Source of the DNA: Patescibacteria group bacterium
GTDB lineage: Bacteria; Patescibacteriota; Patescibacteriia; Patescibacteriales; JAQVLT01
Assembly (NCBI GenBank): GCA_028704015.1
Contig: JAQVLT010000003.1
Span: 36,997-100,996 of the forward strand
Direction: 5' to 3'
DNA: 64,000 bases
The notes under the pieces were generated by a model that saw only the letters and a program-made list of their open reading frames with translations, was not told where the DNA came from and did not search any database. Below, one piece after another: positions 8,311-49,487 of the stretch; position 1 is the stretch's first letter, and each line of letters opens with the position of its first letter. The position numbers and the translations under genes are program-made.

Positions 8311-8703
8311 TTAAGTTTTTTGCGCTGACATTTTTTTGCCGGAAGTTGCTGTTCTTCTGACGTTGCCGCGAACGGTTCGACTATTAGTCTTGGTTCTCTG
8401 GCCTCTTACCGGCAAACTCTTGGCATGACGCAAACCGCGATATGTATTAATTTCTTTTAATCTTTTAATATTTCCGGAAATATCTCTTTTTAAATCACCT
8501 TCAACGCGATGTTGCTTTTCAATAATTACTCTTAATTTATTTGCCTCTTCTTCGGTTAAATCTTTAACTCTTTTGTTTGGATCAATATCTGCTTGTTTTA
8601 AAATTTTGTTAGAAAGAGTTTGACCAATACCAAAAATATAAGTCAATGATGTTTCCACTCTTTTCTCGTTTGGAATTGTTACGCCAGCGATACGAATTGC
8701 CAT
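8311..8703 (-). CDS. rpsM: 30S ribosomal protein S13
   Basis: [16 protein letters not shown]...[20 protein letters not shown]. Confidence 0.93.
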
Positions 8704-8775
8704 TTTAAGAATTAAGATTTAAGAATTAAGATTTAAGAATTAATCTTAAATCGAAAATCTAAAATCAAAAATTAA

Positions 8776-13027: not shown

Positions 13028-15649
13028 CTATTTTTCTATTACCATCGCGTAATATTTATCTACATTCAAAACGTCTTCAATGTGCCAGCCGTTTTCACTG
13101 ACTTTTGAACTAACCGGATATTTCCAGACGGCGCGCAAATTTGCCGGCAAAAATAAATTGGAAATAATCTTATCGCCAATTGATCCTGGTTGTTTTTGAA
13201 CAAATAACGAATAAGGCAATAAACTTTTCTGGTCGGGATTTAACAAATTTTCTATTTTTCCGAACCAACCCGCATCATCCCGAGGAGCTTCTTTGATTGT
13301 AAATGGTAATTTGTATTTGAGCACAACTGTTTTTATTTCTCCCGGCTCAAGCATAAACCAATTGGCAAAAACTGTTTTTCCATTCTCATTGTAAATTTTT
13401 GTTTTATTTTCTTCGTCAATTCGCGCTAAATTTTCCGTCTGAGCAATAAAAGGATCAACGCTCAATGATTCTTCTGGCTGTTTAGCGATATATTCTTTTT
13501 CATCCAGCTCGCTAAAACCCTCAGCGGATAAAAGTTCGCTCCCAGCCGGCACATAAACTCTCATCCAATCTAAATTTCGCACGCCGGTGAACAAATCTCC
13601 GCGGCTGGCATTGTGTTTTCTTGTAATCACCACGGTGTCAATAATGCTTCCATCATCGGCTATTTCCGCTTGGTGATTTATTGTTTCGTCAATCACTTTG
13701 TCGCTTTTCTGCCCGTAAATATTGGTATTAACAACTGATAAATAATCCCATTTGTTTTCTTCCATTTTTCCATCCCAACCGCGTTGGGCGATTTCTTTTT
13801 CCAATTTTTCATCAGTAAAATAAAATAAAATATGTTTTTCATTCAAATTGCCTTCTATTGCTTTTAAAATTTCAACGAATTTGTCCTTGTTATTGATTCT
13901 CTTTGGCAATTCAACGAGAATAGCATCCATTAAATCGCGGATAATTTCCTTGGGTTTAGCTTTGTCAACCTCAACTTTTCCGGAGGTGGAATCTTTTAAT
14001 TTGTCCAATTCTTCTTCACTTAAATTTCCCGCTTCAACTATTTTCTGAGTAGTATCCCAAAAATTATCCGCGTCAATCACCACGCCATATTTGGCCGTCA
14101 TATCAATCGGGCCGAGTACTCTTAAAATTCTCTCTAATACTGTCGGGGTAAAACTGATCACACCATCAACGGTCGGGCCATCGCTTTTTTCATAAAACCA
14201 TTTCAGCTTCTCCGCGCTGGTCGGCCAATCAGGCCACCAATTCGCATTCCAAAAAAACCAGCGCGTCCCAATAAGCCAAAATGGTTCGGGCGCCAAAACT
14301 GATTCTCTAAGCCCGGCCGTAGTGTCATAACTCCCGCCAGCCGGAGCTTCAATATTTTTTATTTTTCCATTTTGAAAATCTACGAGCGCGTAACTGCCGA
14401 CAAAACCGCCCGAACCGCGCATTTCGGAATTATTTTGAAAAACTAACAAATAACGTTTATTGCCGGCAACACCTAAAAATTCTTTGAGCTTTTCAGAAAT
14501 CAAAATAAAATCTCCCAAGCCGGCTTCCAGATCGGCTGATTTATTTCTCAAAAAAATAAACTGCTCTCTGTATTCAATGGGTAAAACATCAATATCAATC
14601 TGCGATAAATGACTATTCAAACTCGCGGCCGCTTCACGTGATTTTTCTCCATATAAAACAAAATTATCTAAAATTTTTGCCATGTCTTTCTCGCCACCTG
14701 AAAATAAACTTTGCAAAGCTAAACTCATATTTTCACCCAAAATGGCGGCATTCTCGCCGGCGGCGAGCATTTCTCGACTATAAGCGGCCAAACGCGCTTC
14801 GTCGCTAGGCGCATAAGCTGCTAATCTAAAAAGCAAACTGTTTATTTCTCCAAGCTCTTTTTCAGCTGAAAAAAATTTCTCACTTGCTTCGGAAAAATTG
14901 TTTGAAGCTTTATTAAAATCCAGATTCATCACGTCTTTGGAGCCATTAATAAAACTGGAAAAACCCGCTTCGGAAGCTAACACGACTTTATTTTTTAAGT
15001 CGCTTAAATTTATAGTTTTATAAAAATCTAAAAATTTAAAAGGCAAAATGATGATGAGCAGAAGTAAAGCGAATTTGAAAATTCCCTTGAAGGAATGTTT
15101 TTTATTGTCATTCTGATCCCGCTCTAGCGGGAGAAGAATCTCGGGTTTATCTATAAATTTCTTTGATTTAGCTTTTGCGTTTAGTATTGTCTCTCGCGCT
15201 TTCTGAGATCCCTGCCTGCCGGCAGGCAGGCTTCGTCCTCTGTTTGCGACCAGAGGATTCAGGATGACAATCGCTTTTTTTATCATTTTCCCCACCCACT
15301 TAACCAAAAATACCGGCGCAAAAATAACGCCATAAAAAAAATATTTTAAATAAACAAAAATATTCCTGCAAAAAATTTTTATTCCGGAAAAAACCCGGGA
15401 AACTTTTTCGACTAAAATTTTGAATAAACCAAAAAACTTTTTAAATAAAACAAAAATAATAAATATCTTGGCAAAAAACTTGAAAACGTTAATAAATATT
15501 TCTTTAAAATCAACATGAACTTTTGAACTATTTTTATGTTTTGATGCTTTAATGTTCTCGCGCGGTTTCAAATCCACAACAAATCTAGACGCTCGATCAT
15601 TTGCGCCAATATTAAAACTGCTAGATTGTTTATCTTTTCCGACAAGCAT
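13028..15649 (-). CDS. DUF4012-like large membrane-anchored protein
   Basis: 873 aa. RYLLVFQNNSEMRGSGGFVGSYA resembles the DUF4012 core. Contains the 168-nt element at 15104-15271. Confidence 0.65.
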   Translation of the reverse strand: MLVGKDKQSSSFNIGANDRASRFVVDLKPRENIKASKHKNSSKVHVDFKEIFINVFKFFAKIFIIFVLFKKFFGLFKILVEKVSRVFSGIKIFCRNIFVYLKYFFYGVIFAPVFLVKWVGKMIKKAIVILNPLVANRGRSLPAGRQGSQKARETILNAKAKSKKFIDKPEILLPLERDQNDNKKHSFKGIFKFALLLLIIILPFKFLDFYKTINLSDLKNKVVLASEAGFSSFINGSKDVMNLDFNKASNNFSEASEKFFSAEKELGEINSLLFRLAAYAPSDEARLAAYSREMLAAGENAAILGENMSLALQSLFSGGEKDMAKILDNFVLYGEKSREAAASLNSHLSQIDIDVLPIEYREQFIFLRNKSADLEAGLGDFILISEKLKEFLGVAGNKRYLLVFQNNSEMRGSGGFVGSYALVDFQNGKIKNIEAPAGGSYDTTAGLRESVLAPEPFWLIGTRWFFWNANWWPDWPTSAEKLKWFYEKSDGPTVDGVISFTPTVLERILRVLGPIDMTAKYGVVIDADNFWDTTQKIVEAGNLSEEELDKLKDSTSGKVEVDKAKPKEIIRDLMDAILVELPKRINNKDKFVEILKAIEGNLNEKHILFYFTDEKLEKEIAQRGWDGKMEENKWDYLSVVNTNIYGQKSDKVIDETINHQAEIADDGSIIDTVVITRKHNASRGDLFTGVRNLDWMRVYVPAGSELLSAEGFSELDEKEYIAKQPEESLSVDPFIAQTENLARIDEENKTKIYNENGKTVFANWFMLEPGEIKTVVLKYKLPFTIKEAPRDDAGWFGKIENLLNPDQKSLLPYSLFVQKQPGSIGDKIISNLFLPANLRAVWKYPVSSKVSENGWHIEDVLNVDKYYAMVIEK
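15104..15271. mobile_element. 168-nt MITE-like element inserted in frame
   Basis: TIRs ATTGTCATTCTGA and TCAGGATGACAAT (12/13 match). Internal GATCCCTGCCTGCCGGCAGGCAGG at 15207-15230. Same architecture as 18263-18420. Confidence 0.65.
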
Positions 15650-15792
15650 GGGGAAAGAGAAAATTTTAAATTCTAAATTTTAAATTTTAAATTTTAATTA
15701 ATTGATATTGATAATTGTTAATTAATTATAATTATACTACAAAATGGTATTGAAAGTAAAATAAAAGGGCTACCCACTGAAAGTGAATAGCC

Positions 15793-17070
15793 CTAAAGAG
15801 ACAAAGAGTCTCCGGTCATGGGCGCATAAGCTTCGCACCCAAGCTCGCGCGCCAGGCAAACCACTGCCTGACAAGCTTGCGGACTGCCATGCTGGGCAAT
15901 GACAATCCGAGGTTTGACCATCTGAATCGCTTGGCGGATGGCCGCGGCATCGGAATGAGCGGAGAAGCTTAGCTTCTCAACGTGGCAGCCCAATCTGACG
16001 CGTTCTCCACCAACGGAAATATTGCCAGTTTTCAGAAGATCTCTCCCTCTTGTGTCCTCTGCCTGATAACCGGCCAAAATAAGGAGATTCTTCGGATCAG
16101 GACCTTTTACTCGGATGTATTCCATGATAGGACCGCCCTCAAGCATGCCGCTCGTGGCGACAAATACACCTTGCGAAATTAGGTGTATCTGGCGATCCCA
16201 TTGGGAAATCCGCCTGACGGAGTAAAGCGCTTGGCGAAGTGCTTCGGGATCCCGAAGATATTCCGAATGCGCGAGAAATACATCCGTCACATTATTCCCC
16301 ATGCCATCCAAATGCACCGGGCAAGAGAGGCCCATCTCGGCAAGGAGAAGGAGAATCTCTTGCGTCCTCGCCAGCGCGAAGGCGGCGATCATCACTGAAC
16401 CGCCACCAGCGATTGTCTCGGCAACCAGAGACTTAAATCTCTCTTCAACCGCAGTCCTGTCAGGATGCGACCTGTCCCCATAAGTCGCATCAATGATAAG
16501 AATCTCCGCATGCGGAAGACGCTCGCATTTTTTCACGAGGCGAGTATCCATGCTATTAAAATCGCCGGTATAAAGCAATGACCTCCTACCTTGCTTCAGA
16601 ATGATACTGACTGAGCCGGGAATATGGCCAGCCGGGAAAAACTGATAGTGGACATTGCCGCGACGACCCTTTTCTTTGTACCGCATGAGCGACAGTACTC
16701 TCTCAATGTCGCTCTCATTATATCGCGGCTCTTGCTTCTTCTTCGCCGCAATTTTCAGAGAGTCATAGAGAAGAAGCTCTGCCGCTTCTTTGGTGATCGG
16801 CGTACAGAAGACGGGGCAATTCAGCCCATCTTTTGCCAGTTCAGCCAAGCCGCCAACATGGTCAAGATGCCCATGAGAAATCGCCGCGAAGCTGATTTTC
16901 TCCAGCCGCGTGATTTTTTCGGGCCAAGCCATAATTTTGGTTCCGCCTATGTTCGCGGGTTTGAGTCCATAATCAAGAAGGATCCGAGACCCATCAGGAA
17001 ATACTGCTTCGATGCAGCTTCTCCCAACTTCGGATCCTGCACCGTGCATTGTTATCCCGATGTTTCCCAT
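15793..17070 (-). CDS. MBL-fold beta-CASP family hydrolase (RNA/DNA-processing nuclease type)
   Basis: HGHLDHVGG motif and C-terminal FSAHSDAAAI...AQHGSP (beta-CASP motifs B/C). GC-rich. The ORF track begins at GTG 17079; ATG 17070 follows GGAGA. Confidence 0.8.
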   Translation of the reverse strand: MGNIGITMHGAGSEVGRSCIEAVFPDGSRILLDYGLKPANIGGTKIMAWPEKITRLEKISFAAISHGHLDHVGGLAELAKDGLNCPVFCTPITKEAAELLLYDSLKIAAKKKQEPRYNESDIERVLSLMRYKEKGRRGNVHYQFFPAGHIPGSVSIILKQGRRSLLYTGDFNSMDTRLVKKCERLPHAEILIIDATYGDRSHPDRTAVEERFKSLVAETIAGGGSVMIAAFALARTQEILLLLAEMGLSCPVHLDGMGNNVTDVFLAHSEYLRDPEALRQALYSVRRISQWDRQIHLISQGVFVATSGMLEGGPIMEYIRVKGPDPKNLLILAGYQAEDTRGRDLLKTGNISVGGERVRLGCHVEKLSFSAHSDAAAIRQAIQMVKPRIVIAQHGSPQACQAVVCLARELGCEAYAPMTGDSLSL

Positions 17071-17131
17071 ATTGACCACATCTCCTCTCGCTTTGATTTT
17101 TAGCTAAAAAGAACAACTTTACAGATTATGA

Positions 17132-17160
17132 ATATTATCAATTAAAAATAACCCTGTCAA
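17132..17160 (-). promoter_or_regulatory. sigma70-type promoter for the MBL gene
   Basis: Minus strand reads TTGACA, 17-nt spacer, TAATAT. Confidence 0.45.
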
Positions 17161-17213
17161 CTTCAAAATATTATTTAAAATTAGCAAAAATTAATAGTTT
17201 CTTAATAAAAACG

Positions 17214-17242
17214 TTGACAAAATAATTAAGATATGTTATTAT
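17214..17242 (+). promoter_or_regulatory. sigma70-type promoter
   Basis: TTGACA (17214-17219), 17-nt spacer, TATTAT (17237-17242). Confidence 0.45.
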
Positions 17243-17272
17243 TTTATGTTAATTGTTCTTTGAAAGACGTTT

Positions 17273-17330
17273 AGTTCTTGCCGGTTTTGTTGCTAAAATT
17301 TAGCGCTAAAACCGGCAAGAACTGTTTTTT
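17273..17330 (+). terminator. leader terminator/attenuator hairpin
   Basis: Perfect 16-bp stem AGTTCTTGCCGGTTTT / AAAACCGGCAAGAACT, 19-nt loop, then GTTTTTT. Sits between the promoter and the ATG at 17392. Confidence 0.5.
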
Positions 17331-17391
17331 GTTTTCAATTTTACGCGCTTTTCGCGCGCACCCATTCACACACCACAAAGGAGGAAGCACC

Positions 17392-18096
17392 ATGACGGAA
17401 GAGCGATATGACCATATTATGGTAAGCCTCAGGGCAAACCGGAACATGGTGGAGAGGGGGCGAAAGTTGGGTCTCCCCTACGTATTCCGGACAAAGCAAC
17501 AGCAGAAAGAGCTAACCGCGCTGTATGCGGCGAAAGCGGGTGAGGCCAAGGCGTTCCGGCTGGAGCGCGAGGACACCGCCGGCAATCCCCAGGCTGACGG
17601 TGGCAACCTCGTCTTCGGACGGAATGGCCAGGAGAACATCCATCTCTGGTCCCTCTTGGACGACTTGTCCAAGGCCGGCTACGGTCTGACCATCGCCGAG
17701 GTCTTCCAGAAGGAGAGCGACAGTAACGGCGTTGGTTTCATCAGGTTTGTTTTTACCCACGACAAAGCCGTTGTGATGCCGACCTTCTTCGAGGTCAGCG
17801 AAGAACAAGAGCGCTTTATGACTCTTCTCTTCAAACGCCTTTACCGGAAGGTGCACGGTTTCCGAAACAACGCGGCGGTCTCGCTCGAGGGCGAACAAAA
17901 CCCGATCCAGGGGCCCATCATCACGCTCAACGTGGCCGGCCCAGTCACGGAAGCGCGTGAACTCGAAGAGCGGCGCCCTTATCGCCGCGACCTGCGGCTC
18001 CTGGACGAGCTCGGGCATTTCCGGTGCCCGCTCCACGACTCCCAGGCCCACGCTCTGGCCAAGAAGCAGAAGGCCTCCGTCCAGGCCCCCGCCTGA
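17392..18096 (+). CDS. hypothetical protein (GC-rich, no recognisable domain)
   Basis: The ORF track starts at 17278, but ATG 17392 is preceded by AAAGGAGGAAGCACC. 234 aa. Confidence 0.55.
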   Translation: MTEERYDHIMVSLRANRNMVERGRKLGLPYVFRTKQQQKELTALYAAKAGEAKAFRLEREDTAGNPQADGGNLVFGRNGQENIHLWSLLDDLSKAGYGLTIAEVFQKESDSNGVGFIRFVFTHDKAVVMPTFFEVSEEQERFMTLLFKRLYRKVHGFRNNAAVSLEGEQNPIQGPIITLNVAGPVTEARELEERRPYRRDLRLLDELGHFRCPLHDSQAHALAKKQKASVQAPA

Positions 18097-18262
18097 CCCC
18101 ACCCTCGTTCTTTATCTTCCGACCCAATCGGGTCATATCTGGCCCCCGGCAAGAACAACACAAAAAATCGTGTTCGTTTCTTCCGGGGGTCTTGTCTTTT
18201 TAAAAATAAAAATCCCCGAAAGGTGGGGTCAAAAAATAAATTTGAGAGCCGAAAAATCTCTA

Positions 18263-18420
18263 TTTTGTCATCTCGAATCCCCCGGTCGCAACCGGGGGTG
18301 AGAGATCTATAATACTTTGTTTTCCTATAAAGCATTATTTATGCGCTTCGCCGTATATTAAAGATCCCTGCCTGCCGGCAGGCAGGTCTCGCACGCCTCG
18401 GGCGGGTCGAGATGACAAAA
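18263..18420. mobile_element. 158-nt MITE-like element (intergenic copy)
   Basis: Perfect 14-bp TIRs TTTTGTCATCTCGA / TCGAGATGACAAAA. Internal hairpins CCCCCGG..CCGGGGG and GATCCCTGCCTGCCGGCAGGCAGG (18363-18386). Confidence 0.65.
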
Positions 18421-19840: not shown

Positions 19841-21049
19841 TTATTTTAACATATTTTTATAAACCGCCACTGTCTCCTCTGCCGCCTTATCCCAGCTATA
19901 TTTTTTTATCTGTTCAAAACCTTTTTGAATTAAATTTTGTCGCAAATTTTCGTCCTTGATTATTAATTTAATTTTTTTTATCATATCATCTTCATTTTCG
20001 GGATCAAAATAAATTGCCGCTTCGCTCAGAACTTCAGGAAGGCAAGATCTATCTGAACTTACTACCGGACAGCCCTGGCTCATAGCTTCTAAGGGCGGCA
20101 AACCAAAACCTTCATAAAGCGAAGGAAAAACATAGGCTGAGGCGTTTTGAAATAAAAATTTCAAATCTTCGTCCGGCACAAAACCGGGAAAATTAACCGG
20201 CGAATCTTCATCGTCTTTAAACAATCTTAATCCGCGAGCATAGTCTTTCACGCGTTTATAAAAATAATCTTCTTTGCCAACTAAAACCAATTTTAAATCA
20301 CTAAACCTTTCACGCAATTTCGGTAAAATTTTAATAAGCATTTCCAAATTCTTATGCGGATAAGCATTGCCAACGTAAAGGATAAACCTCTTTCCTCCCT
20401 CTCCCCCGTCCCCTCTCCTAATTAGGAGAGGGGTGTCTGAGCGAAGTGAAGACGAGGAGAGGTACTGGACTGGGGGTGAGGGAAAAGTTGTCCCTTCATA
20501 AATCATCACGATTTTTTTCGGCTTGACTTTGAATTGTTTTATTATATCTTCTTCTGTATATTTTGAAACAGCAATAATTTTTTTGGCACGCTTAACCGCT
20601 GTCCAGATAACAATTTTATAAAACAAATTTTTCAGTTTATACAGCCAAGGGCTCAAAGTACTCGCGCGTTGGGTGGGATATTTAGTGAGAATCAAATCCG
20701 GAATGGTAACGACAAATTTTACGGGCGTTAATATCGGCACATTAAAATGCGTAAAATGCATCAAACTAACATGTTCGCGCCAAATTAAAAACGGGAGCAT
20801 TATTTGCTCCTTCAAAGTATACCAGCGCGCATTGGCTAATACCTTCTTAACACCCTGGCGCGGCACGACAAAACTATCGTAATTGTCCTTATACAAAAAA
20901 ATTACGTAATCATTTTCCGTATCTTTCCTAATAACCCGATCAACAATTTCCTGCGTGTATCTCCCCAATCCTTTACCGACAGGGCCGTAGAAGCGAGCGT
21001 CAATGCCGATCACGTTATTTTTCTTTTTTAATTGCTCATGTCTACTCAT
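19841..21049 (-). CDS. GT4-family glycosyltransferase
   Basis: EGFGLPPLEAMSQGCPVV (E-x7-E). Interrupted by a palindromic-element peptide. Confidence 0.82.
   Translation of the reverse strand: MSRHEQLKKKNNVIGIDARFYGPVGKGLGRYTQEIVDRVIRKDTENDYVIFLYKDNYDSFVVPRQGVKKVLANARWYTLKEQIMLPFLIWREHVSLMHFTHFNVPILTPVKFVVTIPDLILTKYPTQRASTLSPWLYKLKNLFYKIVIWTAVKRAKKIIAVSKYTEEDIIKQFKVKPKKIVMIYEGTTFPSPPVQYLSSSSLRSDTPLLIRRGDGGEGGKRFILYVGNAYPHKNLEMLIKILPKLRERFSDLKLVLVGKEDYFYKRVKDYARGLRLFKDDEDSPVNFPGFVPDEDLKFLFQNASAYVFPSLYEGFGLPPLEAMSQGCPVVSSDRSCLPEVLSEAAIYFDPENEDDMIKKIKLIIKDENLRQNLIQKGFEQIKKYSWDKAAEETVAVYKNMLK
20386..20485. repeat. about 100-nt variant of the CCCCTCTCCTAATTAGGAGAGGGG element, in frame
   Basis: Core palindrome at 20410-20433. 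Translated ...SLRSDTPLLIRRGDGGEGG... Confidence 0.75.
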
Positions 21050-21235
21050 GCTTTAAATTATTTTAAATGTTAATTGAATGGGGACGAAAATTTTAAATTA
21101 TAAATTTTAAATTTTAATTAAATGATAAATTACTAAATTTTAAATTTTCCTTTGCAGCTAAGGCAACTCGGGAAAACAAAATTTGTCATTTTATTATTTA
21201 AAATTGATTTAAAATTTAAAATTTGATATTTAAAA

Positions 21236-22117
21236 TTATCTTTTTACTTTCTCAATAATCTCGGCCAAACCGTCGTCATCAAAAAACTCAATCACGATTT
21301 CACCCCCATGCCCCTTGCGTTTGATCTCCACTTTGGAGCCAAAAAATTCGCGCAAAGCAAATTCTTTATCCTTGTCGGCGTAATTAATTTTGATACGCGC
21401 ATTTTTTGTGCCGCCCATGCGCCGTGCTTCTTGATTGGTGTCGCGTACTGTTAAATTATTATGTAGAATGCGCCGGAATAAAGCCATTTGCTTATCCAGT
21501 GATTCAAGCCCCAAGATAAACTTAGCATGGCCATCAGTAATTTTTCCTTCAATCAAGGCTAACTGTACTTCTTCTGGCAAGTTTAAAAGACGTAAAGCAT
21601 TAGTTACTACCGGACGCGACTTCCCTACTTTTCTACCTACTTCTTCCTGCGTTAAACTAAATTCGTCAATCAATTTCTGGTAAGCAATCGCGGTTTCAAT
21701 GGGATTTAAATTTTCTCTTTGCAAATTTTCAATTAAAGCTATTTCTAATTTTTCCTGTTCGCCGGCTTCGCGCACGATTACCGGCACTTCTTTTAAACTC
21801 AAAGATTGCGATGCGCGCAAACGCCGTTCGCCGGCGATTAGTTCGTAACCATCAACAGACCTGGTAACAATGAGCGGCTGGATAATGCCATATTGTCGCA
21901 CAGACTCAATCAATTCGTCCAAACTGTAATCGGCAAATCTTTGCCGCGGCTGATGCGGGTTGACTTTTATTTGCGCGGGTGAAATTCGTAATATTTTATC
22001 TTTGTCTTCCGGCGTAATAGTTTCAATTACCTTAATCTCGCCATCTGCCGAAGCATCTTGTTTTTTTACTTTTGGAGGAATCAGCGAACTAAGTCCGCGA
22101 CCTAATGTATTGGACAT
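21236..22117 (-). CDS. parB: ParB/Spo0J partition protein
   Basis: GERRLRAS, LIENLQRENLNPIE, HTH region. Confidence 0.9.
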   Translation of the reverse strand: MSNTLGRGLSSLIPPKVKKQDASADGEIKVIETITPEDKDKILRISPAQIKVNPHQPRQRFADYSLDELIESVRQYGIIQPLIVTRSVDGYELIAGERRLRASQSLSLKEVPVIVREAGEQEKLEIALIENLQRENLNPIETAIAYQKLIDEFSLTQEEVGRKVGKSRPVVTNALRLLNLPEEVQLALIEGKITDGHAKFILGLESLDKQMALFRRILHNNLTVRDTNQEARRMGGTKNARIKINYADKDKEFALREFFGSKVEIKRKGHGGEIVIEFFDDDGLAEIIEKVKR

Positions 22118-23549: not shown

Positions 23550-23633
23550 GCCGAAGTGGCGAAACTGGTAGACGCGCACGACTCAAAATCGTGTGGAAGC
23601 AATTCCATGAGAGTTCGATTCTCTCCTTCGGCA
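23550..23633 (+). tRNA. tRNA-Leu(CAA), type II with a long variable arm
   Basis: Hand-folded. Acceptor GCCGAAG/CTTCGGC, anticodon stem CACGA/TCGTG with loop CTCAAAA, T-arm GAGAG-TTCGATT-CTCTC. No encoded CCA. Confidence 0.9.
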
Positions 23634-23794: not shown

Positions 23795-24049
23795 ATGTAC
23801 ACAGTGTATATTTTAAAAGATGAAAATGGAAATTTGTATAAAGGCATGACAAGTGATATAAAACGAAGATTAAATGAACATCGGCGAGGAAAAACACAAA
23901 CTACTAGAAGAATGAAAAATATCAAATTAGTTTATCAAGAAGAGCTGGCTACATTTGATGCTGCACGCAAAAGAGAATTATATTTGAAAACTGCCGCTGG
24001 AAGAAAATTTATAAAAGAAAAATTAAGGACGCTTAGCTCAGCTGGTTAG
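23795..24049 (+). CDS. small GIY-YIG nuclease family protein (UPF0213/YhbQ-like)
   Basis: 84 aa. YTVYILKDENGNLYKGMTSDIKRRLNEHRRGK... The last 7-8 codons and the stop lie inside tRNA-Val. Confidence 0.85.
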   Translation: MYTVYILKDENGNLYKGMTSDIKRRLNEHRRGKTQTTRRMKNIKLVYQEELATFDAARKRELYLKTAAGRKFIKEKLRTLSSAG

Positions 24050-24103
24050 AGCGCCTCGTTTACACCGAGGAGGTCGAGGGTTCGATCCCTTCAGCGTCCA
24101 CCA
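24027..24103 (+). tRNA. tRNA-Val(TAC), CCA encoded
   Basis: Hand-folded. GGACGCT/AGCGTCC acceptor, D-arm GCTC..GAGC, anticodon stem CCTCG/CGAGG with loop TTTACAC, T-loop TTCGATC, then ACCA. Confidence 0.92.
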
Positions 24104-24185: not shown

Positions 24186-25805
24186 ATGAAGAATGAAAAA
24201 AAACCGGAAAAGGTTGCCTTGTTGAGCGTTTTCAACAAGGACGGGATTGTGGAGTTTGCTCGCACCCTCAAGAACATGGGCTGGAAACTTCTTGCTTCCG
24301 GGGGCACGGCGCAGACGCTCAAAAACGCCGGGCTGGAAGTCAAGGATGTCGCGGACCTGGTCGGCGGCGGCGCTATTCTTGGACACCGCGTGGTCACGCT
24401 CTCACGGGAAATCCACGCCGGCCTTTTGGCGCGTGACATCCCTGAGGACAACGCGGAGCTGGACCGGCTGGGGATCCCGCGCATCGATCTTCTTTGCTCG
24501 GATCTCTACCCGCTTGAGCTGGCCATTGCCGCAGGTAAAACCATGCCCGAGGTCATTGAGATGACCGACATCGGCGGACCCACGCTGATCCGTTCGGCGG
24601 CAAAAGGCCGCCGTATTGTCATCTGCAACCCAAGGGACCGCATGGTTGTTCTCGGCTGGATGACCAGCGGCGAGCTGGACAAGGAAAGCTTCTTAAACAT
24701 GCTTGCCGCCAAAGCCGAAATGACCGTCGCCCGCTACGCACTATCTTCGGCGCGTTTCATCAGCGGCGGCGAGTTCGACGGTTTCCTCGGCCAACGCTAT
24801 CTTGAATGCCTATACGGGGAAAACGCCCCGCAGACTCCGGCCGGCGTCTTTAGCGCCCGTACAAGCGACCTGCTGGCGCTGGACAAACTCCGGCTCTTGA
24901 CCGAAACGTCGTCAAGCTACAACAATACGTGCGACCATGACCGGCTGCTCCAGACAATCACGCACATCGCCGCCGGCTTTGACCTCAACTTCGGCGAAGT
25001 GCCATATATCGCCGTGGCGGTCAAACACGGCAATCCCTGCGGCGTTGGCGTTGGAAAGACGCCGGAAGAAGCTCTCAAGAAGATGATTGACGGCGATCTT
25101 CGCGCCATTCTCGGCGGCATCGTCATGACCAACTTCCTGATAGACGAGACGGCCGCGAAAATCCTGGCCGTCTACCAGGTGCCCGTAAGGAAAAGGCGCT
25201 TGCTGGACGGGATTATCTGCCCGGTCATCACAGATAAGGCCGTTGCGATGCTCGAACGGAAAAAAGCCAAATGCCGGATTCTCATGAACCCTGCTCTAGC
25301 GGAACTGAACGAGAAATCACTGGACACGGCTCCCCGCCTTCGCTGCGTCCGCGGCGGATTTATGGTTCAGCCGAACTACACTTTCATTCTGGATCTGAAC
25401 CACCCGGAAATGAAAAAGTTCGGCCAGGCCACGCCTGAACAGAAACGCGCTATGGTGCTTGCCTGGGCTATCGCAGCCACGGCCAACAGCAACACCATCG
25501 CGCTTGTGAAGGACGGCATGCTTGTCGGCCTGGGATCTGGCCAGCAAGACCGTGTCGGCGCTTGCAAGGTGGCCTGTTTCCGAGCTGACGAATCCGGCCA
25601 TGACATCTTTGGGGCGATTGCGGCAAGCGATAGCTTCTTCCCCTTTGATGATGGCCCGCGCGCCCTTGCCGACAGGGGCGTCAAGGTGATCTTTTCTACC
25701 TCTGGCTCGATCAACGACCAAGCGGTCATTGACTTCTGCCAGGAAAACGGCATCGTGCTCTACATGCTTCCGGACAAGGTGGCCAGGGGTTTCTTCGGCC
25801 ACTAA
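24186..25805 (+). CDS. purH: bifunctional AICAR transformylase / IMP cyclohydrolase
   Basis: 539 aa. MGS-like N-terminus ALLSVFNKDGIVEFARTL..LASGGTAQTL and AICARFT domain. SD GGAGT upstream. GC-rich. Confidence 0.9.
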   Translation: MKNEKKPEKVALLSVFNKDGIVEFARTLKNMGWKLLASGGTAQTLKNAGLEVKDVADLVGGGAILGHRVVTLSREIHAGLLARDIPEDNAELDRLGIPRIDLLCSDLYPLELAIAAGKTMPEVIEMTDIGGPTLIRSAAKGRRIVICNPRDRMVVLGWMTSGELDKESFLNMLAAKAEMTVARYALSSARFISGGEFDGFLGQRYLECLYGENAPQTPAGVFSARTSDLLALDKLRLLTETSSSYNNTCDHDRLLQTITHIAAGFDLNFGEVPYIAVAVKHGNPCGVGVGKTPEEALKKMIDGDLRAILGGIVMTNFLIDETAAKILAVYQVPVRKRRLLDGIICPVITDKAVAMLERKKAKCRILMNPALAELNEKSLDTAPRLRCVRGGFMVQPNYTFILDLNHPEMKKFGQATPEQKRAMVLAWAIAATANSNTIALVKDGMLVGLGSGQQDRVGACKVACFRADESGHDIFGAIAASDSFFPFDDGPRALADRGVKVIFSTSGSINDQAVIDFCQENGIVLYMLPDKVARGFFGH

Positions 25806-25829
25806 TCAAAATTCTTTTAATCCTCCAGC

Positions 25830-25876
25830 AGGACTTTCAAAGTTTCTTACGAGAAACTACGAAAGTCCTTTTTTTC
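25830..25876 (+). terminator. hairpin AGGACTTTC...GAAAGTCCT plus T7
   Basis: Read directly after purH. Confidence 0.6.
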
Positions 25877-26024
25877 TTGCTTTTTTCTTAAAATTTATCT
25901 AATATAAAGTTAGAAAGGAGGGCCAATCTTATCGTAAGATTCGGCTCTTTTTGCACCTTGAAAAAATCGATTTTGAAAACCGTAGAGATAAACTGACAAC
26001 CCCTCAACGGAAAGGACTGATGCA

Positions 26025-27509
26025 ATGGACGAACGGTATACCATAGAAAAAATTACGAAAATCTGGTCGACTGAGAACAAGCTCAGTCTCTGGCAAAAAA
26101 CCGAACTCATGGCAATCAAAGCCAGGGTGATTCTCGGCCTTGTCGCCGAGACGATTTTCCTGAAGATCGAGGAAACGCTCAAGCGAATCCCGATTGACAT
26201 CCCGTGGTGGAAAAACCGCGACAAAGAGATCCGCCACGACCTTAACGCCTTTCTCGATGAGAGACTCCGTCACCTGACCGAGGAATTACAGCGCTACCTG
26301 CACGAGGACATGACCTCCTACGATACGGAGGAACCGGCTTTTGTGTGCATGCTCAGGGAGTCAGTGCAGATTGTCATCAGGAGTCTGGAAGAAGTCTGCA
26401 AAACTCTGAAAGCAATGGCACTCAAATACCGCTACACAATCATGAACGCCAGAACCCACGGACAGGAAGCCAAGCTGCAAAGCTTTGGTAAAAGATGCCT
26501 TACCTGGTACGTGATTTTGCAATTAGACCTCAACAACCTGAAGAATACGGTCAGTTCTCTCAAGTATGCCAAGCTTTCCGGCGCTGCCGGGAACTACGGC
26601 GACATGGATCCGGCGGTGGAGATCGAAACTCTGAAACAGCTTGGATTCGAACCGCTCTACGGCACACCCCAGATCCTTCCCCGCGAGCTTTTTGCTCCAC
26701 TGGCGCAAGCGCTCTGCCAGATCGTGCAGTCGTTGGACAAAATCGCGACCGATATTAGATTAGGCGCGCGTAGTGGACGGCCGATCTTGCAAGAGCCGTT
26801 CGGAAAAAAGCAAAAGGGCTCTTCCGCCATGCCGCATAAAAAAAACACCATCCGCACCGAGCAGATGGAAGGCATGGCGCGCATGGCGCGCGGCTACATG
26901 AATATGATCCTGGAAGCGATCAAAACCTGGGAAGAACGGGCTATTGAACAATCCTGCGTGGAAAGAGTGGCCTGGCCTGATCTCTTCCATGTGGTCGTTC
27001 ATTCACTGAAAACCATGAACGCAGTACTAACCGGCCTAACCGTTTATCCCGACAATATGCTTCTGGAAATCGCTGATTCCTGCGGAACTTACGCTTCGGA
27101 AGAAGCAAAAAAGCTTCTCCGGGAATTCCTGGCGGAACGCGGATTGTCAAGCGAAGTGGCCTACCGTATCGTGCAACTCGCCGCCTTCAATGCTCTGGAA
27201 CTTAGCGGCGGTTTCCAAAGATTGCGTGATGGCATTCCTTCAACGATAGAAGAAGCGGAAGTGGCGTTAAAGGAAGCTTCTAGTTTGGATCGACCAAGGA
27301 GAGAAAGCATCCAGGACATCATCCCTTTAGGCCATTTGCGCCACTCACCCCAACTCGAAGCTACCGAGAAAGAAATCGAGGGATGGAACGTGATGCTGTT
27401 CACCATCTTCTCGAGTCGCAGAATTCGCGATCGCTGGAACCAAATCTTCCGGCCGTCATACCAGCTAAGACGCGAACCTTTTCTCTACGAAAAGATACTT
27501 GGAAAATAA
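26025..27509 (+). CDS. purB: adenylosuccinate lyase
   Basis: Fumarate-lyase signature GSSAMPHKKNT. N-terminus RYTIEKITKIWSTENK. Confidence 0.9.
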   Translation: MDERYTIEKITKIWSTENKLSLWQKTELMAIKARVILGLVAETIFLKIEETLKRIPIDIPWWKNRDKEIRHDLNAFLDERLRHLTEELQRYLHEDMTSYDTEEPAFVCMLRESVQIVIRSLEEVCKTLKAMALKYRYTIMNARTHGQEAKLQSFGKRCLTWYVILQLDLNNLKNTVSSLKYAKLSGAAGNYGDMDPAVEIETLKQLGFEPLYGTPQILPRELFAPLAQALCQIVQSLDKIATDIRLGARSGRPILQEPFGKKQKGSSAMPHKKNTIRTEQMEGMARMARGYMNMILEAIKTWEERAIEQSCVERVAWPDLFHVVVHSLKTMNAVLTGLTVYPDNMLLEIADSCGTYASEEAKKLLREFLAERGLSSEVAYRIVQLAAFNALELSGGFQRLRDGIPSTIEEAEVALKEASSLDRPRRESIQDIIPLGHLRHSPQLEATEKEIEGWNVMLFTIFSSRRIRDRWNQIFRPSYQLRREPFLYEKILGK

Positions 27510-27535
27510 CCCCCCCCACCGAAAGGAGACCGCCC

Positions 27536-28093
27536 ATGAATCCTAAATTTGTACCGCAAGTCGTAATCATCGCCGGAAGCGACACGGATCTCAAAGCGAT
27601 TGAAGATGCCGGTATGTTGAAGGCCTTCCAGGAAATGAGCATAACCTACGCTCTTTCCTTTCTCTCCGCACACCGCCATCCTGATGATCTGAAGAACTAT
27701 TTACTCGCCATGGAAAAGGAAGGTACTCTAGTTTTCATCGGGATCGCCGGCATGTCCGCTGCTCTTCCTGGAGATATGTCAGCAATTCTCAAAAACAAAC
27801 GTCCTGTCATCGGAGTTCCTTTGATCGCACCCGACGGATTCAGCGGTCTGGATGCTCTTTTCTCCATGATCCGTTTGCCAGCAAGCACTGCCGTGGCCGT
27901 CCCGGGAATCGGCAAAGCAGGACTGAAAAACGCGACGATCCTTGCTTGCCAGATTCTTGGAGTAGAGCGGCCCGAAACACAGGTCGCTTTGAACAACTAC
28001 CTCACGAAAAAAGCGGCCAAAAAGCCACCCCAACCCGACTTCGAAATTTTTAACGGGAAAACCGTTCACCACCAACATAAAGGAGGAGCATAA
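27536..28093 (+). CDS. purE: PurE (AIR carboxylase / N5-CAIR mutase family)
   Basis: VVIIAGSDTDL, SAHRHPDD, AGMSAALPG, PVIGVPL. The ORF track starts at 27383, but ATG 27536 follows GAAAGGAGA. Confidence 0.85.
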   Translation: MNPKFVPQVVIIAGSDTDLKAIEDAGMLKAFQEMSITYALSFLSAHRHPDDLKNYLLAMEKEGTLVFIGIAGMSAALPGDMSAILKNKRPVIGVPLIAPDGFSGLDALFSMIRLPASTAVAVPGIGKAGLKNATILACQILGVERPETQVALNNYLTKKAAKKPPQPDFEIFNGKTVHHQHKGGA

Positions 28094-28096
28094 CCC

Positions 28097-28987
28097 ATGA
28101 TCCAGCCCCTGTTCGAAACCAACTTTCCCGGCCTTCCCGTTCCTCGTCGCGGCAAAGTCCGCGACATCTATGACCTAGGTGATTTTCTGCTCATGGTCGC
28201 CACTGACCGGCTATCAGCTTTCGACGTGGTCATGAAGGACCCGATCCCAGGTAAAGGCATTACCCTCACGCAGATGACCTTGTTCTGGCTGGAAATGTTC
28301 GCAGATATGGTGTTGAACCACTTGGTTACGGCTGATCCCGCCCAGTACCCGGACATCTGCAAACCCTACGCCGACATTCTTGTCGGCCGCAGCATGCTGG
28401 TCAAAAAATGTGCGCCCCTGCCAGTGGAATGCATCGTCCGCGGCTACCTTAGCGGTTCCGGCTGGAATGATTACAAAAAGACCGGATGCGTCTGCGGCAT
28501 CCAGCTTCCGCCCGGCCTTCTGGAATCGGCGCAGCTTCCTGAACCGATTTTCACGCCTTCTACCAAGGCTGAGCAGGGCAAGCACGACGAGAACATTTTG
28601 TTTGAACAAGCAGTAAAACTACTCAGCCGCGAGACCGCAGAAAAAATCCAAAAACTCTCACTCGCGCTCTACCAACGGGCCGCGGCTCATGCCCGCAGAC
28701 GCGGCATCATCATAGCGGACACGAAATTCGAGTTCGGGCTTGATAAAGACGGCAACATCGTGCTGATAGACGAGGTTCTCACCTCGGATTCATCCAGGTT
28801 TTGGCCCGCCGCCCAATACGAACCCGGACATGGCCAGCCGAGCTTTGACAAACAAGGCGTCCGCGACTTTCTGGTTAAGATCGGCTGGGACAAAAAGCCG
28901 CCTGCACCCAAACTCCCGATCGGCGTCATCGCCGAGACGCGCGAGAAGTACCTGAAGGCTCTCCGCCTCCTCACCGGCCAATTCTAA
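28097..28987 (+). CDS. purC: SAICAR synthetase
   Basis: GKVRDIYD, LIDEVLTSDSSRFW. Confidence 0.92.
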   Translation: MIQPLFETNFPGLPVPRRGKVRDIYDLGDFLLMVATDRLSAFDVVMKDPIPGKGITLTQMTLFWLEMFADMVLNHLVTADPAQYPDICKPYADILVGRSMLVKKCAPLPVECIVRGYLSGSGWNDYKKTGCVCGIQLPPGLLESAQLPEPIFTPSTKAEQGKHDENILFEQAVKLLSRETAEKIQKLSLALYQRAAAHARRRGIIIADTKFEFGLDKDGNIVLIDEVLTSDSSRFWPAAQYEPGHGQPSFDKQGVRDFLVKIGWDKKPPAPKLPIGVIAETREKYLKALRLLTGQF

Positions 28988-32063: not shown

Positions 32064-33929
32064 TCATGTTCTTTTTACATACGTCGTATGTAAAACTTTA
32101 TGTTCCAAATCTTTATTTTTCTTAAGCCAATCAAGCGCTTCTATTACTCCTTTATTTTCATGCGCGCGCCTGACCTTTTTATCTTTATCAATTTTATAAA
32201 GCGCTTCAATACGTTTCCGGCGAATTTCCTGCGTTGTTGGGATTGGCTGTCCGCCGCCGCCGATGCAGCCGCCCGGACAGGCCATTACTTCAATATAATC
32301 ATAATTATTAAGATTTTTTAAAACTTCGTCAACACAGCCGATGCCGTTTACCACAGCCACGCGTAATTTCTTTCCCGCCACGGTTACCGTAGCCTCTTTC
32401 ACTCCTTCCAGTCCCCTAACTTCTTTAAAATCAATCCGGCGCTCGCAGATTTTTGCTTTACTTTTTTCACAAGCTAAGGCCTGTGCGGCTCGCAAGGCTG
32501 ATTCCATTACACCTCCGCTTCCGCCGTAAAGCACGGCGGAGCCGGAAAATTCTCCCAAAGGATTGTCGGCGGTTGTTTTCTCTATATTGGCAAAATCAAT
32601 ATTATTTTTTTTCATGAGCCAGGCAAACTCGCGCGTGGTAATCACGTAATCAACCGGCGCGTTGCCATTAATCTTCAATTCCGGACGCGAAACTTCAAAC
32701 TTTTTTGCTGTGCACGGCATCACTGAAACTACGATAATGTCTTTTGGTTTAATGCCCATTTTTTCCGCCCAATAAGTTTTTACTAATCCGCCGTTATGAA
32801 CATGCGGGGAACGAGCTGTGGTTAAATTCGGAATCAACTTCGGATGATAAAATTCTACATATTTCACCCAGGCTGGACAACAGGAAGTAATCATCGGCAC
32901 CTCCCCCCCGTCCCCTCTCCTAATTAGGAGAGGGGTGGCGGAGCCGGGGAGAGGTTTGCGGATACGAGCCAGTCTTTCTAATAATTCCTCCGCTTCCACC
33001 ATCGTTGTCACATCCGCGGCAAAACTGGTATCAAAAACATAATCAAAGCCCAAAGCCCGCAAAGCTGAAACAATTTGTTCGGTTACTATCTGGCCATAAG
33101 GCAAACCAAATTCCTCGCCAATACTCACACGAATTGATGGCGCGAATTGCGCCACTACCACTTTATTTTCTGACTTTTTCTTCTTCAAAATTTCTTCCAC
33201 TTTATCCCAATGCGCTTGTTCCTGCGCCGCGCCCACCGGACAATGCAGGGCACACTGGCCGCAATAAATGCAATCAATTGATTTATTTTTTTCTGACAAT
33301 AAATCTTTCGCGCGAAACAATGGCGGCTCTAATATTTTATTACTTTTGAGTGGTATTATTTCTTGTTCACTTCCCTTGCCTTTTAATTCTAGATAGTTTA
33401 TCTTCTGCATCAACGAACAAGCGTCAAGGCAATTGCGACAATCAATGCATTGCGTACCGTCAATTTCCACGGCATTAGAAAATTTATAAATTTTTCTCTT
33501 TCCTTTACGGTCAGGGAAACGGCAAATTTCCAGTTTGTATCGGTCTGCTAAATTCAAGAGTTCGCAATTCACGCGCCAGATGCAAGTCGGGCATTTTTCA
33601 ATATGCTCGGCAAAAATTAATTCAATATTCAGGTTGCGCGCTTTCTTCACCCGATCCGTGTCAGTGCGTATTTCCATACCGCTTTTAACTTTGGTTTTAC
33701 ATGACATTGCTAATTTTGCTCGACCATTAATTTCTACGCAGCAAACACGGCAATTGGCTTTTGGCGGAAAATCTGGATGGCTGCAAAGCGCTGGAATAAA
33801 AATATCGTTTTGGCGCGCTACATTTAAAATCGTCCGCCCTTCTTCGCATTTTATTACCTTATTATTAATTTTTATTTTTACCTTTTTCATAATTTTATTT
33901 AAAACATTCACAAATTGTTTTTCTGTCAA
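32064..33929 (-). CDS. hydA: [FeFe]-hydrogenase catalytic subunit (HydA/HndD-like)
   Basis: 2Fe-2S and 4Fe-4S Cys clusters. H-cluster motifs TSCCPAW, MPCTAKKFE, ACPGGCIGGGGQP. Alternative start at ATG 33890 (MKKVKIKIN). Confidence 0.88.
   Translation of the reverse strand: MTEKQFVNVLNKIMKKVKIKINNKVIKCEEGRTILNVARQNDIFIPALCSHPDFPPKANCRVCCVEINGRAKLAMSCKTKVKSGMEIRTDTDRVKKARNLNIELIFAEHIEKCPTCIWRVNCELLNLADRYKLEICRFPDRKGKRKIYKFSNAVEIDGTQCIDCRNCLDACSLMQKINYLELKGKGSEQEIIPLKSNKILEPPLFRAKDLLSEKNKSIDCIYCGQCALHCPVGAAQEQAHWDKVEEILKKKKSENKVVVAQFAPSIRVSIGEEFGLPYGQIVTEQIVSALRALGFDYVFDTSFAADVTTMVEAEELLERLARIRKPLPGSATPLLIRRGDGGEVPMITSCCPAWVKYVEFYHPKLIPNLTTARSPHVHNGGLVKTYWAEKMGIKPKDIIVVSVMPCTAKKFEVSRPELKINGNAPVDYVITTREFAWLMKKNNIDFANIEKTTADNPLGEFSGSAVLYGGSGGVMESALRAAQALACEKSKAKICERRIDFKEVRGLEGVKEATVTVAGKKLRVAVVNGIGCVDEVLKNLNNYDYIEVMACPGGCIGGGGQPIPTTQEIRRKRIEALYKIDKDKKVRRAHENKGVIEALDWLKKNKDLEHKVLHTTYVKRT
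32898..32958. repeat. 57-60-nt nested palindromic element, in frame in hydA
   Basis: ACCTCCCCCCCGTCCCCTCTCCTAATTAGGAGAGGGGTGGCGGAGCCGGGGAGAGGT. Near-identical to 42044-42100. Confidence 0.85.
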
Positions 33930-40349: not shown

Positions 40350-40475
40350 GCTTAACTCGCGCCCAGCCGTAAACGGCAGGGCTATTTTGTTAAAGCCCCA
40401 TTAATGGGGCTTCCGCCTATCTAGCCCAATCCATTTATGGCCATGCCTACCGGCAGGCAGGTTGGGCGTAGAAAT
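40350..40475. repeat. GC-rich palindromic block in the rpsB 5' leader
   Basis: AAGCCCCATTAATGGGGCTT plus GCCCAA..CCTACCGGCAGGCAGG..TTGGGC. Shares the CCGGCAGGCAGG core with the other elements. Confidence 0.6.
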
Positions 40476-42989: not shown

Positions 42990-44231
42990 TTATATAAAAA
43001 TAAATGCGACTAGCAAACAAAACAACCCAATAGAAGACGCAATAATGTGCGGATGCTGTTTTTTTATTTCAATAAAAATATTTAGGAGAAGCGCAATAAA
43101 TAAAATTAAGGCCAAAATTTTAAAATACAGCGAACTCACGTCCAGAAGCGGCTGAATAAATTTTGATCCGGTTGATTTGATAAAAAAATACTGGCTCAAA
43201 ACGGAAGGCTGGAGTGGTTCCACGCCAGAGATATTGATATCACTTGTGTTTTTTTCGCCGTTAGCATTGTAAACGGTGATTGTTGGCAAAACTACCGGAT
43301 TAAATATCCGCTCTTTTTCTTCTTTGGTTAATACTGCATTGCCGATCCATTTATTTTTTTCACTCACATCTTTAGTCAAGGTAATCAAATAACCATTCAA
43401 ACTAACCTCCGCCTTCTCGGCGCCAATATTTAAATCGGCCACGACCTGCACCAACGTTTCTTTTTGAAAAGGAGAATCAGCCACGGAGATTTTACTATTC
43501 GCCGAATTAAACAAAATACTATCGCCATCTGTCGCAATTAAATCATTAGTAATTGTTTGTGAATTTATCTTGGGAATTGAAACGTCATCTTCTTTCTTGG
43601 CCGCGATAATTTCTTGTTTCTTGGTAATAGCTTTATTCTCGCTTGCCAACATTTCCTTGGTAATGCCGAAATATTGCGCGACAAAAGTGGTATTGCGATC
43701 ATTATACGGACCACTAGCGGCGCCCACGCCAATCTCACGGTAATCAGGATCAATCATATTGGCGTAATGCGTTTTGCTGTTTACCCAACCGTCTACCACA
43801 CCTTCGGGAGCTGAAAATCCCATGGCCAAATTTTCCCCAGCCATCGCATAATCATATTTTACAATTTTTAGCCAATCACGAAGACTTCTATTATCCGGAC
43901 CAACATGCGCGAAATATTGATTGATAATCATATCTTCCGCCTTGGCGAGCGCCGCATTATTCAAAAACTGATTTTCAGCTAATACGTAAAGTCCTAAATT
44001 TCTTCTAATATCATTAGTCAATTTAATAATTTTTTTACTCTGTTCGGCTTCCACCTCAGGCGTTAGCCACGCTTCCATTGGAAAAGCCACGATCAAAAGC
44101 ACCACCGCAACTTTTATTGCAATCGCGCTTAAGGCATGAAAAAACAACCGCTTTGGATGTAGAGACTTTGGTTTATAATTATTACCCGCGTGCGGAATAA
44201 AAAGGTCTTTAATTGTATTTACATCAAACAT
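42990..44231 (-). CDS. CAP/SCP/PR1-domain protein with N- and C-terminal TM segments
   Basis: YFAHVGPDN...GENLAMGF...GWVNSKTHYANMIDPDYREIGVG. Confidence 0.75.
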   Translation of the reverse strand: MFDVNTIKDLFIPHAGNNYKPKSLHPKRLFFHALSAIAIKVAVVLLIVAFPMEAWLTPEVEAEQSKKIIKLTNDIRRNLGLYVLAENQFLNNAALAKAEDMIINQYFAHVGPDNRSLRDWLKIVKYDYAMAGENLAMGFSAPEGVVDGWVNSKTHYANMIDPDYREIGVGAASGPYNDRNTTFVAQYFGITKEMLASENKAITKKQEIIAAKKEDDVSIPKINSQTITNDLIATDGDSILFNSANSKISVADSPFQKETLVQVVADLNIGAEKAEVSLNGYLITLTKDVSEKNKWIGNAVLTKEEKERIFNPVVLPTITVYNANGEKNTSDINISGVEPLQPSVLSQYFFIKSTGSKFIQPLLDVSSLYFKILALILFIALLLNIFIEIKKQHPHIIASSIGLFCLLVAFIFI

Positions 44232-44318
44232 AGCGCAAATTTTAAATATTAAATTTTAAATCAATTTTAAATGATAAATGACAATTAAAAATTTAATAAT
44301 TTATCATTCAATTAAAAT

Positions 44319-49424: not shown

Positions 49425-49487
49425 TTTTTTATTTTTTCTCTCCTTTTAATAAGGAGAGATTTAAATGAGACTTTAAATTTCACTAAT

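Follow-up and report, generated by a model that had tools for sequence, protein, structure and literature searches.

At positions 20386-20485 of the 64,000-nucleotide stretch of DNA analyzed here (the window; a Patescibacteria group bacterium, contig JAQVLT010000003.1 of assembly GCA_028704015.1), the gene of a GT4 glycosyltransferase contains a short segment that a first-pass annotation had described as a longer variant of a palindromic element shared with two other genes of the window, hydA and mnmA. The sequence at this place is as described there. The open reading frame (ORF) at 19841-21049 is translated on the minus strand into a protein containing ...IVMIYEGTTFPSPPVQYLSSSSLRSDTPLLIRRGDGGEGGKRFILYVGNAYPHKNLE... 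(in a shorter excerpt, ...YEGTTFPSPPVQYLSSSSLRSDTPLLIRRGDGGEGGKRFILYVGN...), which is 100% identical to an NCBI entry of a "Patescibacteria group bacterium" and is on record from 2 contigs. Two domains of this protein are recognised by Pfam, Glyco_transf_4 (residues 27-186) and Glycos_transf_1 (residues 218-378); since they flank the segment, it constitutes the interdomain linker between the two Rossmann halves, in agreement with the original assignment. The GC content of the linker is 57%, as compared with 38% for the GT4 gene and ~36% for the metagenome-assembled genome. The gene and the parts of its repeat are:

19841-21049, minus strand: host gene of the GT4 (GT-B fold) glycosyltransferase (ORF of 402 residues, Pfam domains, conserved ParB-GT4-TruD synteny)
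20397-20463, minus strand: GT4 repeat unit, 67 nt, on the coding strand ACCTCTCCTC / GTCTTCACTTCGCTCAGACA / core / AC / GGGGGAGAGGG (profile match; architecture as in loci L030, L051 and L058)
20410-20433, no strand assigned: core palindrome CCCCTCTCCTAATTAGGAGAGGGG, perfect, 24 nt, open in one frame only (read from the sequence)
20434-20453, minus strand: variable module GTCTTCACTTCGCTCAGACA (coding strand), 20 nt, which contains a weak GTCT/AGAC hairpin and corresponds to the 10-nt module of hydA and mnmA in its long form (alignment, fold)
20454-20463, minus strand: inner arm ACCTCTCCTC (coding strand; alignment)
20397-20407, minus strand: opposite arm GGGGGAGAGGG (coding strand; alignment)
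20464-20482, minus strand: extra segment not covered by the family model, made up of a second arm CCCTCACCCCC and the spacer AGTCCAGT (fold, profile boundary)
20387-20396, minus strand: purine run AGGAAAGAGG (coding strand) resembling a degenerate arm, at the GC-rich block's 3' edge, lengthening the outer stem (sequence, fold)

A family profile built from 54 non-identical copies of the repeat matches 20398-20463 over the whole of its length (E=1e-15). When the GT4 copy is folded, as DNA or as RNA, the partner of the arm at 20397-20407 is the second arm CCCTCACCCCC and not the inner arm; L004, L058 and the GT4 orthologue P0102 (L065) likewise have a doubled arm. The GT4 module GTCTTCACTTCGCTCAGACA equals the short module of the hydA and mnmA copies, GGCTCCGC--CA, plus 10 nt (one indel). 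The core plus about 35 nt had been reported as shared with these two copies before the sequences diverge. The sharing itself is evident, its length requires correction: the unbroken identity between the GT4 and mnmA copies covers 38 nt (20398-20435), that is, the core and 14 nt, and the alignment resumes after the 10-nt indel and runs on through the other arm of the unit, so that each of the 57 short-form positions corresponds to one in the 67-nt GT4 form. The 67-nt subtype recurs as GTCTTCGCTTTACTCAGACA in the PP-loop ATPase gene of several Falkowbacteria-like genomes (L030, L051, L059, L060 and L061; peptide YLSPSSLYSDTPLLIRRGAGGEV) and as GTCTTTGCTTCGCTCAGACA in the metagenome contig L058. 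In view of these recurrences the longer variant is an established subfamily and no one-off. The refuting condition set at first, a lack of further copies of the extended variant, does not apply, although all of these copies lie outside the window. A terminator scan of 20386-20485 called no terminator-like site on either strand, and an intrinsic terminator role for the GT4 repeat was rejected, as the hairpin is followed by GTTGTCC on the plus strand and by TTTATCC on the minus strand, with no T run.

The core CCCCTCTCCTAATTAGGAGAGGGG is found as an exact match at three sites of the window (20410-20433, 32912-32935 and 42057-42080), as had been noted at first, with 0 matches in 100 shuffles even when 3 mismatches are allowed. 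All three copies lie inside minus-strand genes (GT4, [FeFe]-hydrogenase and mnmA), each reading TPLLIRRGDGGE. The remaining copies in the window are:

32899-32955, minus strand: short copy, 57 nt, in the [FeFe]-hydrogenase gene (hydA, 32064-33929, minus strand; profile, Pfam, structure alignment)
42044-42100, minus strand: short copy, 57 nt, in mnmA (41575-42765, minus strand; profile, Pfam, structure alignment)
49593-49628, minus strand: related loop-variant copy ACCTCACCC TAA CCCTCTCC TTGTGAA GGAGAGGGG, inside the RNase P RNA gene (profile, E=0.0015)

Both short copies read KPLPGSATPLLIRRGDGGEV and begin at codon position 3. The copy in the [FeFe]-hydrogenase gene adds about 18-19 residues, and aligned to HydA1 (8a6t) the protein has an 18-residue insert directly upstream of its PMxTSCCP motif; in the window MnmA an insert of 18-19 residues fills an alignment gap to E. 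coli MnmA (2der). Removal of exactly 57 nt (ACCTC...GAGGT) from mnmA yields KIIALTSANVGEH, equal in length to the E. coli segment KIITVDGDEIGEH. Judged against the solved structures, the short copies in hydA and mnmA are clean insertions of ~19 codons; no direct repeat was detected in the flanks of either. An identical MnmA protein, copy included, is also on record under assembly accession GCA_028707515.1. The loop variant (also written CCCTCTCC-TTGTGAA-GGAGAGGG, with a ACCTCACCC arm) sits in an RNase P RNA gene (49486-49945, minus strand) of 460 nt versus a 367-position model, in a variable hairpin region of 57 nt versus 34 in the model, which we take to be P16/P17. The same variant occurs in the GT4 linker of the orthologue P0038 (L066). 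A tblastn search of the window with 22 host proteins from other genomes revealed no orthologue. Two further properties are common to the three core-bearing copies of the window. On the module-free side (20397-20419, 32899-32921 and 42044-42066), the arm and the adjoining core half make up a polypyrimidine mirror repeat CCTCTCCCC-CGT-CCCCTCTCC, which could in principle form a triplex (H-DNA), and each copy creates an RGD tripeptide; the significance of either feature is not shown.

The GT4 enzyme itself looks maintained overall: in a comparison with 119 orthologues it differs at a single one of 91 near-invariant columns, and a decaying pseudogene was rejected for this reason. The sole deviation is an unexplained substitution at residue 117, a Pro where all 119 other orthologues have His (TIHDLIL motif). 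An AlphaFold model computed with a 32-sequence alignment returned a confident GT-B fold (predicted template-modelling score 0.83; mean predicted local distance difference test (pLDDT) value of 84), in which pLDDT falls below 50 at residues 191-206 and 211-218 and averages 39-48 for the blocks across 191-220. The repeat-encoded peptide is therefore modelled as a disordered loop between the two domains of an enzyme that still folds as GT-B.

Orthologues of the GT4 protein, confirmed by the ParB-GT4-TruD synteny, allow the native linker to be defined. When measured as the distance from YEG to FLLYVGN in the 111 orthologues that could be parsed, the linker has a mode of 30 residues (61/111), with 24-27 residues in the closest clade, and an L..YxI motif (consensus VANLAKGRDSLFAAKLDDKETLLGYNINSP) is kept in 99 of the 111. 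The window linker has 35 residues, nearly all of them repeat-encoded, and is devoid of the motif; this is the comparison with repeat-free GT4 orthologues that had been proposed at first, and it shows no conservation of the linker. Taken together, the alignments indicate that the GT4 copy took the place of a native linker of ~24-30 residues and is no clean insertion. As neither 67 nt nor 86 nt is divisible by three, the present frame requires a loss of ~70 nt of native sequence. We also considered the Pfam start positions as a sign of linker loss and rejected them, since the native linker lies outside both domain models in the orthologues as well. The GT4 linker is a hot spot for repeats: that of P0102 has a family copy with one core mismatch (peptide SLLIRRG), that of P0038 a TTRTSAA-loop variant (peptide PLLIKER), those of P0057 and P0079 related palindromes, and that of P0002, the closest relative, an unrelated repeat.

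A scan for the exact core in one genome per species identified 57 further loci in ~20 Patescibacteria genomes, mostly of Falkowbacteria, Kuenenbacteria, Parcubacteria and unclassified Patescibacteria, with at least 9-11 copies in single genomes. The family is therefore widespread in Patescibacteria, which, together with the displacement of the native GT4 linker, goes beyond what the first-pass annotation had claimed. Full-text literature searches retrieved no description of such elements in Patescibacteria, and the family is apparently undescribed for the phylum. All copies follow a common plan: A-CCTCWCC-CC as the first arm, then a variable module (5-40 nt, never on both sides), the core CC-CCTCTCC-TAATTA-GGAGAGG-GG, a 4-8 nt linker and an arm GG-GGWGAGG-T. 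In other words, the heptamer CCTCWCC occurs four times in the unit, in two inverted repeats of which one is nested within the other; the outer repeat makes up the arms and the inner one the core. Terminal inverted repeats ACCTCWCCCC / GGGGWGAGGT are present in nearly all copies; the base directly outside the heptamer is counted as part of the arm because it is A in 91 of 110 arms. No covariation was found at the central W of the outer arms (24 matched vs 25 mismatched).

The existence of length variants, inferred at first from three copies, is borne out by more than 60: they range from 48 to 84 nt between heptamers (~50-86 nt arm to arm), almost wholly due to the variable module between arm and core. 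The smallest units are near-perfect 50-nt hairpins (RNA fold of L003 -51.7 kcal/mol, z = -10), and hairpin z-scores extend from -2.8 for the GT4 copy to -10. The modules are of recurring types, many being hairpins themselves (e.g. TCCCGCCAGCTGGCGGGA and GTCCCGAGGCTTCGGGAC), with stems that vary in compensated fashion between copies. Such hairpin modules, the doubled arms of GT4, L004, L058 and P0102, and an orthologous KsgA site where the module may be found on one or the other side of the core, and which also holds unrelated AT-rich repeat peptides, fit the suggestion that the elements are composite or nested. A protein search with a 50-residue concatenate of the element peptide gave 5 word-sharing candidates, none of which scored. 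No exact core was found in the viral contigs searched, and a phage collection gave one weak 36-nt match; there is no evidence in these sequences for a viral vector.

The way in which the repeat can be read follows directly from its sequence. Stop codons (TAA or TAG) close two of the frames of the core, and the third is open, reading PLLIRRG; because the core is a perfect palindrome, the same peptide is encoded on either strand. Of 62 non-identical copies, 23 are inside long ORFs, all reading PLLIRRG, in both orientations relative to the host gene. These genic copies span at least 10 gene families, among them KsgA (at two sites), MurG, LigA, RecG, UvrB, a dihydrouridine synthase (Dus), a PP-loop ATPase and an HlyD-like protein, while 31 of the 33 classifiable intergenic copies are in short spacers between tandem genes. 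The insertion sites are structurally permissive, as illustrated by the low-pLDDT interdomain loop of GT4, the alignment gaps of hydA and mnmA, and the hypervariable loops of KsgA and GT4 in their orthologues. When KsgA proteins were sampled solely for their protein similarity, the loop flanked by NEDIL and YKIVANLPY proved to be 8-49 residues long and to hold a decay series: PLLIRRG > PLLTRRG > PLLNRRG > PLLKGG > PLIRGA > PFIKGE.

Across the GT4 orthologues P0002-P0120 and the KsgA orthologues P0121-P0240, the same two loops bear many different inserts that are G/R/P/S-rich or derived from AT-rich repeats (e.g. LRQGFGGQ, PIGRRTSLNPIGRRTSLNP, TSPQPSPSEGEGERV and PPLNLPLVKGESPQGRG). Owing to this variety, in-frame colonisation by repeats looks general in these genomes.

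Overall, we consider it probable that the GT4 segment is a copy of a repeat family resembling the Rickettsia palindromic elements (RPEs), tolerated at a permissive site. According to this model, short GC-rich non-coding palindromic repeats would have spread through the AT-rich genomes of Falkowbacteria, Kuenenbacteria, Parcubacteria and related Patescibacteria. As the core carries stops in two frames and has the same open frame on both strands, genic copies would survive only in the PLLIRRG phase, where they add a loop rich in Pro, Leu, Arg and Gly to a permissive part of the protein surface. The GT4 copy would be the 67-nt subtype plus an extra solo arm, and its linker may have arisen either from one insertion, after which ~70 nt of native linker codons were deleted, or from nested insertions combined with a deletion, with the frame kept. 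The KsgA decay series, the arms lacking covariation, the mixed orientations and the mixed contexts favour a history in which permissive loops were colonised long ago and more than once, with decay thereafter. As for the route, the strong hairpins and the lack of a target-site duplication point more towards hairpin-recognising or recombination-based spread than to a classic DDE transposase.

Several observations weigh against this interpretation. Past mobility of the repeat is something that we infer only, because the analysis turned up neither an empty site nor a target-site duplication or an autonomous partner. Whether insertion or deletion came first at GT4 cannot be recovered, the nearest orthologue being only 67% identical, and no second copy of the 67-nt subtype was found in the 64-kb window, which is only part of the genome. 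A purely neutral passenger should not be more conserved than its surroundings, and yet the identity of the element at orthologous sites in KsgA, MurG, LigA and PP-loop genes is 84-98%, versus 69-78% for the 300-nt flanks, with the caveat that these loci were picked by a perfect core. Between L028 and L032 there is 1 difference at 30 non-core positions where ~8 would be expected. The high conservation at orthologous sites is partly an ascertainment effect of the exact-core search; some homogenisation or constraint of the element remains without explanation.

This excess of conservation is one argument for regarding the repeat as a functional cis-element under selection, be it an array of four CCTCWCC sites bound by a Patescibacteria-specific protein, a signal for recombination or DNA uptake, or a hairpin in the RNA controlling mRNA stability or translation, with the genic copies being functional sites that by chance can be translated. 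The arms and core, which are kept the same across several candidate classes, the compensated module stems (TCCCGCC..GGCGGGA, CTCCGCC..GGCGGAG, ATCCGCC..GGCGGAT) and the very stable RNA hairpins (-42 to -52 kcal/mol, z -4.7 to -10) are in line with such a function. On the other hand, the outer arms show no covariation at their W, the repeat is found in either orientation with respect to host genes, coding, intergenic and RNA-gene contexts have no position in common, the element is sporadic among GT4 and KsgA orthologues with its decay visible, and the conservation figures are inflated by the exact-core discovery. We therefore regard a selected cis-element as unlikely. Somewhat more doubtful still is a particular version in which a Patescibacteria-specific factor would recognise the double-hairpin array of four CCTCWCC sites, either a hairpin-specific HUH protein or recombinase homing to the same orthologous sites, or the DNA-uptake machinery of naturally competent, nucleotide-scavenging cells. 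If true, this would explain why elements at orthologous sites are 84-98% identical while the codons around them have diverged to ~72%.

The ends of the repeat raise the question of a classic miniature inverted-repeat transposable element (MITE), that is, a deletion derivative of an insertion sequence (IS) moved in trans by a DDE transposase recognising the terminal inverted repeats. The inverted repeats of ~10 nt, the small size, the multiple copies with no coding capacity and the AT-rich flanks, with ATA frequent beside the arms, are all compatible with this origin. In fact, TA stands at both ends of just 8 of 54 copies (6/36 intergenic, 2/18 coding), and a TA target-site duplication was rejected for this reason; the two short window copies are without flanking duplication, exact removal of 57 nt restoring the native protein length. 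Nor does the 0.5 Mb of fetched sequence contain a long element with the same ends: two long arm pairs, ~1 kb apart, are most likely the ends of separate elements. A classic MITE is thus quite improbable. The notion that there is no inserted element at all, only a lineage-specific low-complexity GT4 linker or an assembly artefact joining reads across a repeat, can appeal to the natural variability of a linker outside both Pfam domain cores in the orthologues too, and is hardly credible given the DNA match to copies in unrelated genes across the whole 67-nt unit, the 57% GC of the linker in a 38% GC gene, the identical GT4 protein on 2 contigs, the identical MnmA protein with its copy under another assembly accession, and the intact ParB-GT4-TruD synteny.

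Among known repeat systems, the closest parallel to the Patescibacteria family is offered by RPEs. These are multi-copy palindromic repeats, nearly half of which are found in frame in unrelated genes, with a conserved peptide for each family and a proposed structural compatibility with the host proteins (PMC10969869). Our family is likewise a short palindromic multi-copy repeat of a small AT-rich genome, with ~40% of its copies in frame in unrelated housekeeping genes, a family-specific peptide at tolerated sites and intergenic copies in addition; for neither has a transposase been identified. Both also occur in RNA genes. The differences concern the host (Patescibacteria rather than Rickettsiales), the size (~50-86 nt versus ~100-150 bp) and the architecture of four heptamers and a module slot, with a perfect palindromic core giving the same peptide in both orientations. 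No relationship was detected, although the sequences were not set side by side directly. The Patescibacteria family works like an RPE and yet is none, belonging to another phylum, being about half the size and having another architecture.

MITEs such as Correia/CREE, RUP, ERIC and BOX are similar in their terminal inverted repeats, small size, high copy number, occasional in-frame ORF fusions and mosaic or modular make-up (as in BOX and BIME); in contrast to them, the Patescibacteria family has no detected target-site duplication or cognate IS, and its genic share is far higher. The REP/BIME repeats with their RAYT (Y1 HUH) proteins are also hairpin-based, mosaic and free of target-site duplications. 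However, REPs are extragenic with a conserved 5' GTAG, whereas the Patescibacteria elements begin with ACCTC and are ~40% intragenic. The AT-rich mitochondrial genome of yeast contains GC clusters and byp elements, which are mobile, GC-rich and palindromic and in some cases lie within protein-coding genes; the Patescibacteria repeats resemble them in their GC-rich palindromes, AT-rich surroundings and coding locations. A byp element breaks the frame and is skipped by the ribosome, whereas the frame is open through every genic Patescibacteria copy, so that no bypass is needed.

Other repeats and possible islands are present in the same window. mnmA contains a second GC-rich in-frame insert (41718-41790) of ~26 residues (..APCPSPCLAGRQASQARGAKK..), which E. 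coli MnmA does not have. It is centred on the palindrome CCTGCCTGCCGGC(A/G)AGGCAGG with CCCTCGCC-like arms, a separate family with four copies in the window (15206-15235, 18362-18391, 40437-40466 and 44756-44785). Two 93%-identical AGATCCCTGCCTGCCGGCAGGCAGG copies (15206-18391) bracket ~3.1 kb with GC up to ~50%, comprising a beta-CASP metallo-beta-lactamase gene (15793-17079) and an ORF without Pfam match (17278-18096), and this stretch may be an inserted island. Following two tRNA genes (23550-23633 and 24027-24100), a purine-synthesis cluster at 24186-28987 (PurH-like AICARFT/IMPCHase, a Lyase_1 family protein that is probably PurB, AIR carboxylase and SAICAR synthetase) has a GC content of 51-56% versus ~36% for the genome and was probably acquired horizontally. 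AT-rich repeat families (TTTAAGAATTAAGA.. and AAATTTTAAATT..) occur in direct and inverted orientation in intergenic spacers (8690-8772, 15651-15707, 21086-21245, 22118-22161/22549-22594 and 44229-44358), and similar AT-rich repeats are translated within KsgA, MurG and PP-loop proteins of other genomes, giving peptides such as FQISNF, IRNYEL and NTKTRKH.

The tiny, streamlined genomes of Patescibacteria bear a repeat family that, together with several further repeat types, runs in frame through essential genes (KsgA, MurG, LigA, RecG, UvrB, MnmA, hydrogenase) and is present in an RNase P RNA gene as well. For annotators and builders of protein families this is a caution, as G/R/P/S-rich inserts of this kind are repeat-derived and not native protein. 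The repeat family is a source of protein loop variation, and Rickettsia-style selfish DNA within genes is not limited to one lineage with reduced genomes.

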